The notes beneath the pieces were generated by a model, which was not told where the DNA came from, searched no databases, and saw only the letters and a list, made by a program, of their open reading frames with translations. From Phycisphaerae bacterium (GTDB lineage: Bacteria; Planctomycetota; Phycisphaerae; UBA1845), in the NCBI GenBank assembly GCA_963666835.2, contig CAXXGO010000006.1, forward strand, positions 1,312,001 to 1,376,000: a stretch of DNA of 64,000 nucleotides, in the 5' to 3' direction. A program made the position numbers and the translations under genes. Shown here piece after piece: positions 8,413-62,983 of this stretch (positions within the stretch are counted from its first letter, which is position 1; each line of letters opens with the position of its first letter).

Positions 8413-8508
8413 CGGGAGTGGATGGGAATCGAACCCACCAGGAGCCGCGTAAACGACCCCTCAACGGCTTTGAAGGCCGCGGGACCCACCAGGTGTCCGG
8501 ACACTCCC
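8413..8508 (-). tRNA. selC: tRNA-Sec(TCA)
   Basis: 96 nt with GGGAGTG/CACTCCC acceptor, extended D-stem, GCGGC-CTTCAAA-GCCGT anticodon arm, long variable arm and TTCGATT T-loop. Confidence 0.93.
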
Positions 8509-55877: not shown

Positions 55878-56828
55878 ATGACAGTCGATTTGCAGCCGTG
55901 GGCGAAGTCTTTGAAGGCGTTCTCTGACTGGATCAATGTTAAGAACCAGACTGCTGGCAAGGCTTGGTTGCGAAGACTCAAATCAAACCAGTCCGAGCAA
56001 GTTGAGAGTGCTATTGCTGAAGCTGTCGTCTGGGATTTCATTGGATGTCGCTGTGATTCGACTTGCTTGAATGATGCACCAGGCACGGGCGGGATCGATT
56101 TCGAATTCATCGTTAATGGTCACAGTTTCCTCGTTGAAGTGACCAATATTTCAACCGAGGCCGCGTCAGCCGCGAGCGCTATGCCGGACAAAGACCGTTT
56201 TTCCGGATTCTACCGTTTGCTCACGAGAAATATTCGGCAGAAGATTAGAGGCAAGCTGAAGCAGGCGCGATGCCAATCGGATCATCCCCTACTTGTAGCG
56301 GTAACAACACTGCACTGGAATGCTAGTCGCGCGTGCATCAGCCGGACAGCAGTTGAGTTTGCGATGGGGTCGCCACCGAAAATAACGCGCAAGTTCAACC
56401 CGAATACGGGTGCAGTCGAAGGGAACCTCTACCAGTCCACGGACCTGAGCCAGTCGGTGTTTCTCTCGCCGCGGCCAGTGAACGGGCCGAACGGTTTGTC
56501 GATCGCGCAAGCGAAATACCAACCGATTTCTGGATTTCTCGTTGGCGGCTTTGGTCTCGACCCCAAGAATGTTTGTGTCTTGGGCGCGCTCAATCCTGAA
56601 GCATCCCAACCGTTTGATTCTGTCATGCTTCCGGATATCCCGTTCTGCTCATTTCGAGAGTGGCCGGTGACAACGGAGATGGGTTTTAGTTGGACCATAA
56701 CAGAGGCCGAGGAGCGAGATCGCCAACAGCAGGCTGCTGAACAGCGTCTTCGCGCTTCAGGATACGGCGAATTTCTGGACGCCATACGCAAGGAGATTGA
56801 GCGTCAATCCGGGAGATGCGGAGACTGA
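55878..56828 (+). CDS. hypothetical protein, possible PD-(D/E)xK nuclease fold
   Basis: E....IDFEF......VEVT motif. Visibly more AT-rich than its flanks. Confidence 0.6.
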   Translation: MTVDLQPWAKSLKAFSDWINVKNQTAGKAWLRRLKSNQSEQVESAIAEAVVWDFIGCRCDSTCLNDAPGTGGIDFEFIVNGHSFLVEVTNISTEAASAASAMPDKDRFSGFYRLLTRNIRQKIRGKLKQARCQSDHPLLVAVTTLHWNASRACISRTAVEFAMGSPPKITRKFNPNTGAVEGNLYQSTDLSQSVFLSPRPVNGPNGLSIAQAKYQPISGFLVGGFGLDPKNVCVLGALNPEASQPFDSVMLPDIPFCSFREWPVTTEMGFSWTITEAEERDRQQQAAEQRLRASGYGEFLDAIRKEIERQSGRCGD

Positions 56829-56835
56829 CCGCTCC

Positions 56836-57125
56836 ATGGCCACTCAATCTTCAATCCGCTACGCCATCTATACTCGCCAATCGAAACAAGGGCTTGCCGA
56901 CTTTTCCTCCTGCCAAGCCCAGTTCCACACCTGTCAGGAATACGCCAAGCAATCCGGGGACCCCTCACTCTACTGGACCGGACAGCACTTCGAAGATGAA
57001 GGCTACTCGGGTTCGACGCTTGATCGACCGGGAATGCGCAGGCTCCGCAAGGTGATCGACCTCGGCGCACTCGACCGAGTCTATGCCGTCGCTTTCGACC
57101 GCATCACACGCAACATGCATAATGC
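56836..57125 (+). pseudogene. truncated serine recombinase (catalytic domain N-terminal part only)
   Basis: YAIYTRQS, FEDEGYSGSTLDRPGM and FDRITRN, then breaks into GAAAACCGGG repeats. Confidence 0.85.
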
Positions 57126-57129
57126 GGAT

Positions 57130-57385
57130 GAAAACCGGGGAAAACCGGGCGAAAACCGGGGGCGAAAACCGGGGACGGCGAAAACCGGGGACAGTCACCT
57201 ATTTACCGGGTCCTTTCGGCATGACCGTCGTATCTTCTCCGCTGGCGCGCGGCGTCCTAAGGCGGCCCACGGGTAGGGGGCGGAGCCGACGGTTCAGCTT
57301 ATGTTCAAGCTTACTCAAGAACGAGTCGGTGGCCAGCGGTCGTCCACGGTAGGTGCATGTGCGCAGCTTGGCGGAGTCGTTCGGG
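57130..57385 (-). pseudogene. 3' remnant of a REP-associated (IS200/IS605-like) tyrosine transposase with terminal repeats
   Basis: LRTCTYRGRPLATDSFLSKLEHKLNRRLRPLPVGR, next to 4 x GAAAACCGGG and GGGGACAGTCACCTATTT. Confidence 0.6.
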
Positions 57386-57387
57386 GA

Positions 57388-57515
57388 AGGCACAAGCGCC
57401 CGTGGTTCGGTTCGAAGGCATGCCGGGCGAGTTCAGCCAGCACGACTTCGGTAGCGTGAGTGTTGTATACGGCGACGGCACGAGCGAGAAGGTGCACTTC
57501 TTCGCCTCGCGCCTA
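57388..57515 (+). pseudogene. internal fragment of an IS21-family IstA transposase
   Basis: APVVRFEGMPGEFSQHDFG...VHFFASRLK. Confidence 0.75.
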
Positions 57516-57794
57516 AAAGCCGGCGGCCCCTTCTTGGCGATACTTCGCGACGCTGCGGAGAACGCTATTCTTGGAGACTCCGAAAGTCCGGACAATCTGG
57601 GCCTGGGTGCACGCGCCTTGACAACAAAGTTGTGCGGTGAACATGCGAAAGGACTGACGATCGCCCGGCGGATGCTGGAAGACGGGCTGGACGCCACAGA
57701 AGTAGGTCCACTGCTGGTCTTCACGGACCACGCTGATCAGGTCGTTGATCTGGGTGGCCCCATGCGGGATCATCGGTAATAATGCTTGTGGCAT
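57513..57794 (-). pseudogene. N-terminal HTH fragment of a putative transposase
   Basis: MPQALLPMIP...QAQIVRTFGVSKNSVLRSVAKYRQEGAAGF, ending at the IstA fragment junction. Confidence 0.6.
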
Positions 57795-58333
57795 CGTGGT
57801 ACCTTCTTCCTGAGAACCGCCAAAGAACTCCGGTTGAAGGTACCACCTTATTTTCCTCCTCGCTCGCACCGGCGAGCTACGCCAATTCTCTCTAAACCAC
57901 GGCTATCAAAGCGAATTCTTCCCGCGAGCCGGCAATCAGCGAAGACCCGAGATCAGGTGGTCTGATGTTGAAGTCAGGAAGACGCTGCTGCCGAAGCGAA
58001 CCACGCCCGAGTGAACCTCCCGGTTGTGATGTCGCCGTTGCTATGTGCAACGATCGTCTACGCCGGGTGTCGCATTATGCAAGCCTTTTGGTCGGGGCCA
58101 GCCGTTCCGGGGAGCTCTGTAAAACATGGAAAATCAATAGTTTAAGCCATATTCGGTCGTTGCGGCGATCCGGTGGCGCGTGCTTTGCTCGTATTGTCGT
58201 AGGCGAGGGCGAATGTCTAAGCCTGGGACGCGAGGGTGTTGCCGGTGCTTGACGTGTGGCGGGGCACTCCTTTTCGTAGTGAGCGTCGAGATGAACGCAG
58301 GAGGTTGCGTGACGCGAAGCGAGGAAGAGAGAT

Positions 58334-58516
58334 ATGTCTATCTTGAAAAGGCTATTCGGCCGCCGGCCGCCGGAAGAGGCCGCCCACCTCGGCCGCAACG
58401 ACCCCTGCTGGTGCGGCAGCGGTAAGAAGTACAAGAACTGTCATTACGAGACGGACAGGAAGTACTTCGCTCGTTCTCTGAAGACCACCTGCAACGGCCC
58501 GGCGTGAAGTCGCTAA
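58334..58516 (+). CDS. small SEC-C motif protein, candidate selenoprotein (ends at 58507 if UGA is a stop)
   Basis: Not in the ORF track. [17 protein letters not shown]...[19 protein letters not shown]...TTCNGPA-TGA-SR-TAA. Confidence 0.8.
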
Positions 58517-58540
58517 ACGAGGTGAGTGTCACCTCTGCGA
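58510..58540 (+). promoter_or_regulatory. candidate bacterial SECIS element
   Basis: GAGGTGA-GTG-TCACCTC hairpin starts 11 nt after TGA 58505-58507, with lower stem TCGC/GCGA. Confidence 0.55.
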
Positions 58541-58624: not shown

Positions 58625-59296
58625 ATGCGAATAGCAATCACGGCAACTGAGCCGACATTGGATGCCGCCGTTGATCCGCGCTTTGGCCGCTGCCCATATT
58701 TCCTGATCGTTGATGTGGACGATCTGACTTTTGATGCGGTGGAGAATCCCAGTATAACACTCGGTCAAGGCGCTGGTATCCAATCGGCCCAACTTATGGC
58801 CGAGAAGGGCGTTACATCCGTTTTGACCGGCAATTGCGGGCCCAACGCGCATCAGACTCTCTCGGCAGTTGGTATTGAGGTGATCGTCGGGTGTAGCGGC
58901 GTCGTAAGAGACGTGATCGAGCGGTTCAAGACCGGGCAGTTCAGCGCCGCCAGTCAGCCGAACGTTGCCGGCCATTCGGGCATGGGCGGTATGGCTCAAG
59001 GCCAACCTGGCCCGACCCAACAGCCTCCGATGCCGGGAGGCGGCGGCGGTGGCCGCGGGATGGGGAGAGGTCGCGGCATGGGCATGGGTATGGGCATGGG
59101 CCGCGGTGGCGGTCGTGGAATGGGCATGGGTAGGGGCGGTGGTCCGCCGGGGCCCGATCCGGCTACCATGCGGCCGCCGGGGCAGAGCGTCGGCAAGGAG
59201 AGCGAGCTGGCCATGCTCAAGCGGCAGGCGGAGGCCATGGCCGAGCAAATGTCCGAGTTACAGCAGCGGATTCAGCAACTGGAGCAGGAGGGATAA
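58625..59296 (+). CDS. NifB/NifX-family (FeMo-co-binding fold) protein with Gly/Met/Arg-rich linker and coiled-coil tail
   Basis: MRIAI, VDPRFGRCPYF, GAGIQSAQ, TGNCGPNA motifs, then GRGMGMG repeats. Confidence 0.9.
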   Translation: MRIAITATEPTLDAAVDPRFGRCPYFLIVDVDDLTFDAVENPSITLGQGAGIQSAQLMAEKGVTSVLTGNCGPNAHQTLSAVGIEVIVGCSGVVRDVIERFKTGQFSAASQPNVAGHSGMGGMAQGQPGPTQQPPMPGGGGGGRGMGRGRGMGMGMGMGRGGGRGMGMGRGGGPPGPDPATMRPPGQSVGKESELAMLKRQAEAMAEQMSELQQRIQQLEQEG

Positions 59297-59415: not shown

Positions 59416-60762
59416 ATGAAAGAAACTGACATAGTTGTTGTAGGTGGAAGCGCAGCGGGCTTAACCGCGGCCCTTACTGCTCGACGTCATTACCCGAACA
59501 AGCGGGTCCTGGTCGTGCGGCGCGAAGACCAGGTCCTTATCCCGTGCGGCATTCCCTACATCTTCGGCACGCTGGGGGATTCGGCGAAGAACGTAATGCC
59601 GGACGCACCGTACGAGGCGAACAAGATTGAGTTGCTCAAGGCCGCGGCGACCGAACTGGATCGGGATAAGAAGATTCTCCACACGGACGGCGGCGACATC
59701 CGCTACGATCGCCTGGTGCTGGCGACCGGCTCCTTGCCGATCATGCCGCCGATTCCCGGGTTTGCTTTAGATGGCGTTTTCGCGATTCAGAAAGACGTTG
59801 ACTACTTGCAGAGTTTGCTCGAACGACTTCAAACTGCCAAGGACGTCGTGATCATTGGTGGCGGCTTCATCGGCATCGAGTTCGCCGATGAGATCAACAA
59901 GATGGGCAAGGCCAACATCACGGTTGTTGAGGTTGCGCCCCACTGCCTCAGCCTGGCTTACGATGACGAGTTCTGCATTGAGATGGAGGAGGTGCTCGTC
60001 TCTCGCGGGATTACGATTAAGACCGGCGCGAAGGTCGAGCATATTCAGGGTGAGACTCACGTTGAGTCGGTTTCGTTGTCCGACGGGGTTGAAATCAAGG
60101 CCGATGCCGTGATTCTGGGCATCGGCGCCGTAGCGAACGTCGAGCTGGCGAAAAAGGCGGGCTTGCGCATCGGGCTGACCGGCGGAATCGCAGTGGACCA
60201 GACGATGCTGACCTCCGATCCGGCGATCTTCGCTTGTGGCGACTGTGCCGAGAAGATCTCGTTTTTTGGCGGTCGGCCGTCCGGCCTGAAGCTGGCCTCC
60301 ATTGCTCAAACGGAGGCTCGGATCGCCGGGGCAAACTTGTTCGGTCTTGAACGGCAAAACCCAGGGACGGTCGGAGCGTGGTCAACCTGCGTGGGCGACT
60401 TTGCGCTCGGCACCGCGGGTCTGACAGAGGCGATGGCCAGGCAACGGGGCTACAACGTCGTGACCGCGACCGTTGAAGGACCCAATCGGCACCCGGGCGG
60501 CATGCCGGGCATGGTCAAGACGAAGATGAAAGCGGTCTTCGAGGCGCACAGTGGTGTCATATTGGGAGCCCAGGTTCGGGGCGATACGGCAACAGGTGAG
60601 ATGATCAACGCCGTCTCGGCTTGTGTGCAGAGGCGGATGACCGTTGAGGACATTGCGATCTTCCAAATCGGTACCCATCCGGCGCTTACGGCGTCGCCGA
60701 TCGTATATCCGCTTGTGAATGTCGCAGAGTTGGCGATCAGTAAGATGCGCGACCGGGACTGA
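59416..60762 (+). CDS. FAD-dependent pyridine nucleotide-disulfide oxidoreductase (NADH oxidase/CoA-disulfide reductase-like)
   Basis: VVGGSAAG, single redox Cys in PCGIPY, LATGS, IGGGFIGIE, FACGDC and THPALT motifs. Confidence 0.92.
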   Translation: MKETDIVVVGGSAAGLTAALTARRHYPNKRVLVVRREDQVLIPCGIPYIFGTLGDSAKNVMPDAPYEANKIELLKAAATELDRDKKILHTDGGDIRYDRLVLATGSLPIMPPIPGFALDGVFAIQKDVDYLQSLLERLQTAKDVVIIGGGFIGIEFADEINKMGKANITVVEVAPHCLSLAYDDEFCIEMEEVLVSRGITIKTGAKVEHIQGETHVESVSLSDGVEIKADAVILGIGAVANVELAKKAGLRIGLTGGIAVDQTMLTSDPAIFACGDCAEKISFFGGRPSGLKLASIAQTEARIAGANLFGLERQNPGTVGAWSTCVGDFALGTAGLTEAMARQRGYNVVTATVEGPNRHPGGMPGMVKTKMKAVFEAHSGVILGAQVRGDTATGEMINAVSACVQRRMTVEDIAIFQIGTHPALTASPIVYPLVNVAELAISKMRDRD

Positions 60763-61504: not shown

Positions 61505-61690
61505 CTCTATGGTCCGCCGAGTTGCGTTGACGTCATCTTATCCGGTGGACGGGTTGGTTCAACGTAAGGCAATGCGCGGGTACGCACTCCTTGCCTGATG
61601 CCCTTGTCCCGCGATAATCGGGGAATCCAACGACCGCCGTTTGGAATAATGAGCAGTTATGAAATCCCAGGAAGTCACAGGGGAAACTCC

Positions 61691-62983
61691 ATGCTGAACC
61701 CGGAAGAAATCAGGCCGTATCTCCTGCACGAGGACGAGCACGTTCGCAGCGCGGCCGTCGAGTATTTCGCCGATATGTGGTGCCAGGACGAGGGGATCGT
61801 ACCGATGATCCTCGAGGCTTGCGACCGGTTTGGCGAGGAGAAGAACGTTCGTGGCGTGGTTGCTTGTCGACGGTTTCCAATAACGGAACAGACGTTTCTT
61901 GATTTGCTTGCACGCGTTCCCCGTTTGCCCGTGATCACCGGCATGATCGGTGTCAACGCTTCATATCACCTGGTCTGCGCAATCGCCGCAGCGCCGGTGG
62001 AGTTTCTGATTCAACATGAGCCGGTTGTCCTGGAGAACACTCGCCCATCAAAGGAGATGATGGAATTCGTTCGGCGTCGGCGAGAACTCGCTGCCTGGTC
62101 CGACCAACAGCTTTGGGAAGAACTTCAGGATTATGCTCGACGGGGGGACGAGGACAATGACGTTGACGATGTCGACCATTCCTACGTTAGTGCTCTGATC
62201 GAGGCACTAGTGCCTCGCGGTCTGCCGGACACCGCGACGCTTTGCACCCTCTTGAAGTCCCCGGAAACTGAACACAGTTGGCTCGAGATATTCCTGATCG
62301 GTTTGGCGGGTGAACGATGCGTTGATGAGGCGATCCCGATTCTCGTAGACAAGTTCCGTGTCGATGCAGACTTCATGCTGGAGCGATCTTCTGAGGCCCT
62401 CGCCAAGATGGGCAATCCGGAAGCCGTGCGGTTGATCAGAGAGGCGTTTCCGAACGAGTCGTGGACGTACAGGCTCTACACCTCGAGCCTGCTGGCGAAA
62501 ATGAAGGTCCAAGAGTCCGAAGACGCGGTCATGGCTTTGCTGGAGACTGAGAGTGACTTGACGATCCGCACGAACCTGTGTTTCGCACTGTGCAAGCTGT
62601 TCTCGCGCCGGGGGGTTGACGTCGTAAGGCAGGAGATTCAGACGCAATACGATTCGAGCGTTGTAGAGCTGGAGGAGGAACTGCTTCCGGTAGCTCAGGT
62701 TCTGGGTATTGACCTCCCTGAAGCCGACGAATGGCGACGGAAGCGCGAGGAAGGAGAGCAGCTTCGGGCTCAACGGCAGAAAGAACTGAGCGAACTTGGA
62801 GCCGGGTATGCTACATTGAAGAAGAAGGGCATCGACCCTGTTGCCCAACTCGGCTCGCCACCTCGCAGCCGAAAACCCGCGCCGACCATAACCTATCAAC
62901 GCCACGACGCCCGAGTGGGACGCAACGATCCCTGCCCCTGTGGTAGTGGGAAGAAACACAAGAAATGCTGCGGGAGGAAGTAG
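61691..62983 (+). CDS. HEAT-like repeat protein with C-terminal SEC-C motif
   Basis: AIPILV..EALAKMG..AV.LI helical repeats and [19 protein letters not shown]. Confidence 0.85.

Follow-up and report, generated by a model that had tools for sequence, protein, structure and literature searches.

The window, the whole 64,000-nt stretch of Phycisphaerae DNA that was analysed, contains a short reading frame that is the first gene of a sigma-54 operon and ends TTCNGPA-TGA-AGT-CGC-TAA. No sigma-70 promoter or terminator was found at this gene. The features of the locus are as follows.

8413..8508, minus strand: tRNA-Sec gene.
58038..58082, plus strand: two enhancer-like half-palindromes of the TTGC...TGCAA type, at -136 and -104 from the sigma-54 site.
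58132..58144, plus strand: IHF-like site, weak alone (2 matches in the window, 0.58 expected).
58174..58189, plus strand: sigma-54 (-24/-12) promoter-like site, 144 nt before the ATG (the only match in the 64-kb window, 0.17 expected).
58334..58516, plus strand: gene of the proposed SEC-C selenoprotein, 60 residues from ATG to TAA, with Sec as residue 58 (frame reading and family conservation).
58334..58363, plus strand: short, modestly amphipathic N-terminal helix, consensus MGxLxxLF (alignments and model).
58394..58447, plus strand: SEC-C metal knuckle, C25-x-C27-G-S29...C36-H37 (PF02810 and PDB peptide matches).
58490..58492, plus strand: tail cysteine C53, at the end of a predicted helix 38–53 (alignment and model).
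58505..58507, plus strand: in-frame TGA assigned to selenocysteine, C-x4-U (TGA at this position in homologues).
58514..58516, plus strand: true stop TAA, two codons after the TGA (mixed stops in close homologues).
58519..58535, plus strand: SECIS hairpin of 7 bp with loop GTG, wholly past the stop codon (covariation and geometry).
58625..59296, plus strand: next gene, a NifX/Di-Nase (orange-protein-like) protein with a DUF5320-like tail (PF02579, E 6.4e-24; PF17253 below cut-off).
59416..60762, plus strand: NADH oxidase / CoA-disulfide reductase-like flavoprotein.

An earlier note, made from the letters alone, had described the frame as a missed gene encoding a SEC-C motif and ending C-N-G-P-A-UGA-S-R-stop. 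The motif and the ending are as described: PF02810 (SEC-C) covers residues 21–38 (E 7.6e-12; 45.3 bits vs the Pfam cut-off of 20.4), and the SEC-C pattern C-x-C-x-S-x6-C-[CH] is satisfied. The gene was missed only in part, because a 57-residue form ended at the TGA is known to gene callers and present among the called proteins (P0002), and it is the Sec-extended end that had gone uncalled. Public records likewise name members 'SEC-C domain-containing protein' and end them at the TGA, three residues short. Two studies provide contigs, from four public runs, in which the TGA is identical; one run may be the source of the window.

The knuckle resembles the C-terminal peptides of SecA and YchJ in the PDB, the solved relatives covering the knuckle alone, and C25, C27, S29 and C36 are invariant in 70 sequences from members picked for having a tail Cys. 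By homology it would bind Zn or Fe through C25, C27, C36 and H37. The zinc site proposed earlier thus stands as a metal knuckle, but zinc itself is not assured, since SecA-like motifs with the conserved serine are reported, in the available part of bioRxiv 10.1101/613315, to prefer iron in vivo. The hydrophobic moment of the N-terminal helix averages 0.59 in 60 related sequences vs 0.39 when shuffled (sd 0.20). An AlphaFold2 model (Cys in place of Sec, 70 sequences, pLDDT 74) comprises this helix (residues 3–7, low pLDDT), the knuckle, helix 38–53 and a disordered tail, so modelled that C53-x4-U58 sits on a flexible arm. The protein is basic, with 13 K+R vs 5 D+E. A fold search gave no match at E 0.001, the sole Foldseek row being the YchJ C-terminal peptide (E 0.16).

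Relatives were collected by a protein search, which returned about 30 full-length relatives, most of them 57–59 residues long and ending four residues past a cysteine, and by a metagenome scan with a mid-protein pattern that includes neither TGA nor hairpin, which gave 92 loci. With three genome loci added and four truncated loci removed, the close set comprised 91 loci and 74 distinct genes, 71 of which came via the TGA-free, hairpin-free pattern. The first stop past the tail Cys is TGA in 73 of the 74 (C+5 in 72, C+6 in one); the remaining gene has CGA instead. In these 73 close homologues the next stop is mixed (TAA 30, TGA 25, TAG 18), lies two codons on in 55 and is always one to five codons past the TGA. 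Across the close set, Desulfobacterota and Nitrospirota, with the CGA gene left out, TGA occupies the Sec position in 119/119 distinct tail-Cys genes, and neither TAA nor TAG was found there in any tail-Cys gene examined. The aligned TGA is present in 13/13 Desulfobacterota genes, 30/30 fetched Nitrospirota loci and 3/3 Acidobacteriota tail-Cys genes. The spacing from C to U ranges from 2 to 5 residues across the family, and a further tail Cys occurs in 24 of 30 Nitrospirota genes, usually as C-x3-C-x3-U.

The codons past the TGA are under selection as protein. The second is Arg in 60/89 close-set and Desulfobacterota genes, and this Arg is kept using all six codons (AGA 19, AGG 18, CGG 10, CGT 5, CGC 5, CGA 3), which indicates that the codons past the TGA are translated. 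The gene with CGA (Arg) at the Sec codon (L089; the same gene in L165 and L230) retains an intact hairpin, and its genome has selA and tRNA-Sec; it probably represents a recent loss of Sec. This gene ends at a TGA inside the hairpin arm. A TGA within the 5' arm of the hairpin likewise serves as the true stop in 16 of the 73 close genes and in the majority of Nitrospirota genes.

No Cys orthologue was found in 92 further proteins (from the best 120 of 4837 matches), among the 150 representatives listed or in the DNA sets. The tail Cys is present in all 92 further proteins, of which 88 end at C+4, three at C+3 and one continues with Val. The earlier note had counted a lack of Cys-containing orthologues against selenocysteine; none turned up, and the Sec reading is nonetheless not refuted. 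Because no Cys orthologue exists among the relatives found, the family may have been overlooked by Cys/TGA searches. The authors of deep-Sep themselves state, in the available part of PMC12013277, that selenoproteins without Cys homologues may be lost at its filtering step.

The hairpin GAGGTGA/GTG/TCACCTC begins 11 nt past the TGA and places its loop G at 18 nt, exactly where the earlier note had put it. It folds alone at -8.6 kcal/mol. The bacterial SECIS model in section 5 of PMC13188914 specifies a loop of 3–9 nt, a stem of 4–16 bp, a G in the first two loop positions, a distance of 16–37 nt from the UGA and an energy of at most -7.5 kcal/mol, and the window hairpin agrees with it throughout (loop 3, stem 7, G first, 18 nt, -8.6 kcal/mol). 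Its geometry is that of the E. coli fdhF element, described in the available part of PMC8659212 as a 17-nt stem-loop 11 nt from the UGA. Rfam gave no relevant match.

Compared with shuffles, the folding energy of the region is unremarkable (z -1.0 to -1.8), so the significance of the hairpin rests on its conservation. When 49 stretches, selected mainly because their spacing is equal, are aligned without gaps, 96% of stem cells are paired and compensatory change is seen at 7/7 pairs, with 0/500 shuffles as high; in slid-alignment controls, pairing drops to 42–56%. A lower TCGC/GCGA stem, also pointed out by the earlier note, is present in the window but is not conserved, pairing in 39% of cells across the 49 homologues. 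A strict hairpin rule is satisfied by 92/119 tail-Cys genes and 0/8 Cys-less genes, so that the aligned TGA plus hairpin proposed as a check on homologues was largely found; of the 27 misses, most place the stem at 16 nt or form a loop of 5 nt, and under a looser rule 105/106 are recovered. At the stops of the genome's long ORFs, the strict rule is satisfied by 24/4314 TGA, 17/3036 TAG and 9/1851 TAA. The hairpin is not a terminator, since a U-rich tail follows in just 4 of 91. The commonest stem across the family is GAGGTGA/TCACCTC(C), the GAGGTGA/TCACCTC arms of which we take to resemble a Shine-Dalgarno (SD) sequence and its complement; stem variants retain pairing, not the SD-like sequence.

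A genome-wide hairpin scan was dropped as a selenoproteome finder (377 hits, too many by chance). A peroxiredoxin-like ORF on the minus strand of C1 near 294805 has an in-frame TGA (TFV-U-PTE) and an 8-bp SECIS-like hairpin; this TxxU ORF is likely a selenoprotein of known type.

The decoding machinery is in place. The genome encodes selA, selB, two selD and tRNA-Sec, the last lying in the window where the earlier note had placed it. The two selD genes are at C1:1328296-1329225 and C6:1524365-1525294, one in a 740-codon TGA-free frame and the other with an in-frame TGA, whose hairpin has its loop at 33 nt. In Nitrospirota, selA is present in 32/32 carriers vs 95/201 genomes, and none of the 106 selA-negative genomes carries the gene; the carriers are mostly one clade, so this co-occurrence is consistent with Sec rather than independent proof of it. 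In Desulfobacterota and the window's own phylum, selA occurs in 278/301 and 112/151 genomes, which makes co-occurrence uninformative there. With an invariant TGA before a mixed stop, protein conservation past the TGA, a covarying hairpin, the Sec machinery and selA co-occurrence all pointing the same way, the UGA almost certainly inserts Sec through a minimal SECIS beyond the stop codon, as the earlier note had proposed. The sequence comparisons thus strongly support a real, apparently uncatalogued selenoprotein family that joins known decoding to a new scaffold and motif.

The family is patchily distributed. Full-length matches were found in 2/401 Planctomycetota genomes, where the family is rare (2/61 among relatives, the window's genome being counted in both), and in 21/301 Desulfobacterota, 32/201 Nitrospirota and 5/241 Acidobacteriota genomes. 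By profile search, 24/301 Desulfobacterota genomes matched, with 13 tail-Cys genes, eight tail-less genes and three unrelated SEC-C proteins; all 13 tail-Cys genes end with TGA, two codons and a stop. In Nitrospirota, 32/201 genomes matched, and the 30 fetched loci all have the TGA two to four residues past a Cys. The matches in 6/241 Acidobacteriota genomes comprise three tail-Cys genes, three tail-less genes and one unrelated. Names in NCBI protein records also place TGA-cut copies in Dehalococcoidia, Zixibacteria and Aquicultorales.

The tail-less sisters (L253-L260, L297, L302, L303) have the N-terminal helix, the SEC-C motif and a basic tail, with no Cys and no SECIS. The eight in Desulfobacterota stop at TAG (4), TAA (3) or TGA (1), and the three in Acidobacteriota at TGA (2) or TAG (1), all without the hairpin. 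Since the eight form one clade (99/97 support), the Desulfobacterota loss was a single event. We rejected the idea that tail-less forms mark genomes without Sec, as selA is present in all eight Desulfobacterota and all three Acidobacteriota carriers; one genome (G990) has a tail-less paralogue beside the Sec form. The persistence of tail-less forms in selA-positive genomes indicates that the core works without Sec and that the tail is an add-on. Cys, TGA and hairpin are lost together, and therefore C and U act as a pair.

The gene context links one part of the family to the orange-protein (ORP) system. The enhancer layout of the window promoter recurs at C1:133938 and, divergently, at C1:132090, flanking a PAS sigma-54 activator with the OrpR Cys spacing C-x8-C-x3-C. 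The window promoter and these two orp-like promoters are the top three of 88 sigma-54-like sites in the genome. As the window, C1:133938 and related loci supplied the consensus, there is some circularity in two of the three ranks, and C1:132090 is the only independent enhancer hit. Around the activator, C1 encodes Di-Nase proteins, DUF5320, ferredoxin, DUF89, two MinD-ferredoxin ATPases and MrpORP above cut-off, a complete orp-like cluster (C1:132466-139848; L294) outside Desulfovibrio. Tandem TTGCA-N3-TGCAA enhancers 32–33 nt apart recur in L153, L159 and L175 and may be the binding site of the OrpR-like activator.

In Desulfovibrio, according to the available parts of PMC8359166 and PMC6345978, OrpR senses redox state with a [4Fe-4S] cluster and, when the potential is low, drives the orange-protein operons. 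The likeness to the D. vulgaris orp regulon (OrpR, Orp3/4/8/9) extends to the PAS sigma-54 activator with the same Cys spacing, the two MinD-ferredoxin ATPases, MrpORP and Di-Nase proteins in the genome, and the layout of sigma-54, IHF and tandem enhancer sites at the window promoter. The window enhancer differs from the D. vulgaris site GGGCGYRTTTTGCGCCC, and those parts of PMC8359166 and PMC6345978 name no SEC-C or selenoprotein member of the regulon.

Among the close-set loci, orp-like genes are near 26 of 76, where the gene often sits with ferredoxin on one side and DUF89 or a Di-Nase gene on the other; none were seen in the other 50, many of which are short. They were seen in 0/13 Desulfobacterota and 0/29 Nitrospirota loci, with flanks of mostly 1.5 kb. 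No sigma-54 site was found within 300 nt upstream of the homologues (0/119 loci with enough flank), and in orp-linked loci the promoter is further upstream, before the NifX-like gene. The genome's own orp cluster is without the SEC-C selenoprotein gene, its usual slot being empty; in the window, a separate promoter serves the gene together with a Di-Nase gene, which suggests a satellite operon. Promoter architecture appears to be shared with the orp cluster, and the orp link appears clade-limited. Of the context named by the earlier note (NifX-like, NADH oxidase and receiver genes), the NifX-like link holds in one part of the family; the other two are not conserved, with flavoprotein homologues in 3/126 loci. 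Neighbours vary in Desulfobacterota and Nitrospirota loci, and most other-phylum loci are free-standing.

Several other observations concern the surroundings. A RiPP-precursor reading was dropped (radical SAM gene near in 6/126 loci). Just upstream of the promoter, window positions 56797-57869 contain a resolvase N-terminal fragment and short ORFs without a Pfam match, possibly mobile-element debris tied to the operon's move. A multiheme cytochrome c gene follows in four loci of one subgroup (L152, L179, L210, L211).

We hypothesize that the protein is a small redox relay, the likeliest role in our estimate and one proposed tentatively. SelB acting on the 17-nt SECIS 11 nt past the UGA would insert Sec, two more residues would be added, and termination would occur before the hairpin. 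The product would consist of a short amphipathic helix, the SEC-C knuckle, a long basic helix and the flexible tail C53-x4-U58, which would cycle between thiol/selenolate and selenenylsulfide. The knuckle would dock the tail on a partner and keep that partner, or the metal centres in it, in the reduced state; for this genome and its close clade, such a partner may belong to the ORP metallocluster system, with which a sigma-54 regulon is apparently shared. Decoding, relay and ORP partner taken together form our best explanation, which we put forward with somewhat less than even confidence.

A possible, less probable role for the selenoprotein is that of chaperone, buffer or sensor, with the Cys/Sec tail as a soft-metal ligand (Cu, Hg, Mo/Cu or Fe-S). 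Besides orange-protein-like Di-Nase domains, close-set neighbours include ArsP-type permeases at 5 loci and, at 2 loci, a cation-efflux-Di-Nase fusion; a Mo-Cu-S cluster is present in the orange protein of Desulfovibrio (available part of PMC6345978), and the second tail Cys of the Nitrospirota genes would suit metal binding; however, no metal transporter is a constant neighbour, and the free-standing loci of other phyla speak against this role. Slightly less probable still is a helper at the membrane, ribosome or Sec translocon, whose knuckle would dock SecB or ribosomes while the tail keeps nascent exports reduced. Such a role would draw on the binding of SecB and ribosomes by the SecA metal-binding domain (available part of 10.1101/613315), on SecA tails as the nearest solved structures and on the conserved amphipathic helix, which would touch the membrane; free-standing genes and tail-less relatives fit a housekeeping function, and the cytochrome genes that follow in four loci are in keeping with it. 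Against it, the annotated neighbourhoods have no sec-gene linkage, and the distribution is patchy in every phylum sampled.

We consider it improbable that the selenoprotein is a redox-switched nucleic-acid-binding regulator like YchJ. The C-terminal SEC-C motif of Salmonella YchJ is reported, in the available part of PMC13377102, as a disulfide switch that forms a disulfide dimer and binds DNA; the YchJ peptide is both the only Foldseek row and a sequence match, and the window protein has the basic charge expected of such a role, but the rest of YchJ is missing, the knuckle ends C-H rather than C-C, and no target gene is conserved. Very unlikely is a selenium-sensing leader, in which UGA and hairpin act on the next gene and the peptide matters little: the ORF does come first in the window operon and the common stem is presumably SD/anti-SD-like, yet the downstream gene varies and in several loci lies on the opposite strand, stem variants keep pairing and lose the SD-like sequence, and conservation at the protein level is seen in the knuckle, the tail Cys and the +2 Arg. 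Least credible is that the TGA is a plain stop, the hairpin a terminator or processing signal and the product the annotated 57-residue protein, as all databases call it: TGA is the commonest stop in the genome (4314/9201 long ORFs) and Cys orthologues are lacking, but the missing TAA/TAG, the second stop within 1–5 codons, the six Arg codons at +2, the scarcity of U-rich tails, the fixed hairpin distance and loop G, and the absence of the gene from selA-negative Nitrospirota are all at odds with it.

We compared the redox-relay candidate with catalogued selenoproteins. The earlier note had recognised no described family, and this holds in the catalogues compared. Table 1 of PMC13188914 (2026, 119 families), through which the families of Haft and Tolstoy 2025 were also compared, contains no SEC-C family and no C-x4-U motif, and NCBIfam gave only partial SEC-C matches below cut-off, for 11 members. 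The main text of BSepDB has no SEC-C; its supplementary family table, outside the comparison, may bear on novelty. No paper joining selenocysteine with the SEC-C motif was found in a literature search that lay outside most subscription journals.

The closest parallels are SaoC (NF040734, Cys-Sec-COOH) and KCU-star / DUF466 (NF033934), which have Sec in their last residues (10.1101/2022.07.06.499078, available part). Both share with the window protein its small size, little or no homology past the UGA and a 7-bp stem with a 3-nt G loop past the coding end. In contrast to the vicinal CU of these proteins, the motif here is C-x(2-5)-U-x(1-5), and there is no sequence match; they have Cys-Cys forms, whereas none was found for the SEC-C selenoprotein. 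FmdB (TIGR02605, UxxU), dual-CXXC NF041197, NF041115 and MbdU (NF045648), all in Table 1 of PMC13188914, also combine a small metal-binding scaffold with Sec, but scaffold and motif are different, and these NCBIfam models gave no match at E 0.1.

The same knuckle with the conserved serine is found in the SecA C-terminal domain, YecA/AscA, YchJ and SEC-C methionine aminopeptidase. Unlike in those proteins, the motif here is the core of a stand-alone 60-residue protein with an N-terminal helix and a Cys/Sec tail. No fusion of the whole module was found in the best 120 longer matches, one full-coverage match being an N-terminally extended call. In eukaryotic thioredoxin reductase, SELENOS, SELENOK and SELENOO, Sec lies within two or three residues of the C-terminus, on a tail that is flexible and has a Cys upstream. 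Any resemblance to the window protein would be one of analogy, as there is no homology and decoding here is bacterial.

The family would be a widespread addition to the bacterial selenoproteome, its carriers making up 16% of the sampled Nitrospirota genomes. It marks a blind spot: a gene that has its Sec codon two codons before the end, and for which no Cys homologue exists, passes for complete in annotation pipelines and can be discarded by methods that depend on such homologues. The three tests used here (a TGA that never varies ahead of a stop that does, synonymous codon variation beyond the TGA and a covarying hairpin) are applicable to all short genes. Since no coding constraint acts on this SECIS, its alignment provides a clean natural sample of a minimal SelB-binding hairpin. 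If the regulon link is true, the protein, being small and synthesizable, offers a way into the orange-protein system, which is still unexplained, and connects that system with selenium. The full set of claims to novelty, namely a Sec-only family in at least four phyla with no Cys version, a knuckle that docks a Sec redox arm, the first selenium component of the orange-protein regulon, and a SECIS wholly in the 3' UTR that makes the class unseen by Cys/TGA searches, is doubtful when taken as one.

Two further ORFs may be of interest. Some 3 kb downstream of the gene, window positions 61598-62983 encode a HEAT-repeat protein with a further SEC-C motif at its end. Downstream of the divergent orp-like promoter is an FmdB-family zinc-ribbon ORF (TIGR02605; L294:2112-2312, minus strand; C1:126111-126311), for which no full-length homologue was found in 60 relatives. 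Its TGA is followed by GVGRGC-stop, and a 7-bp hairpin places a GTT loop at 20 nt, features that make it an unconfirmed candidate for a possible second small selenoprotein.
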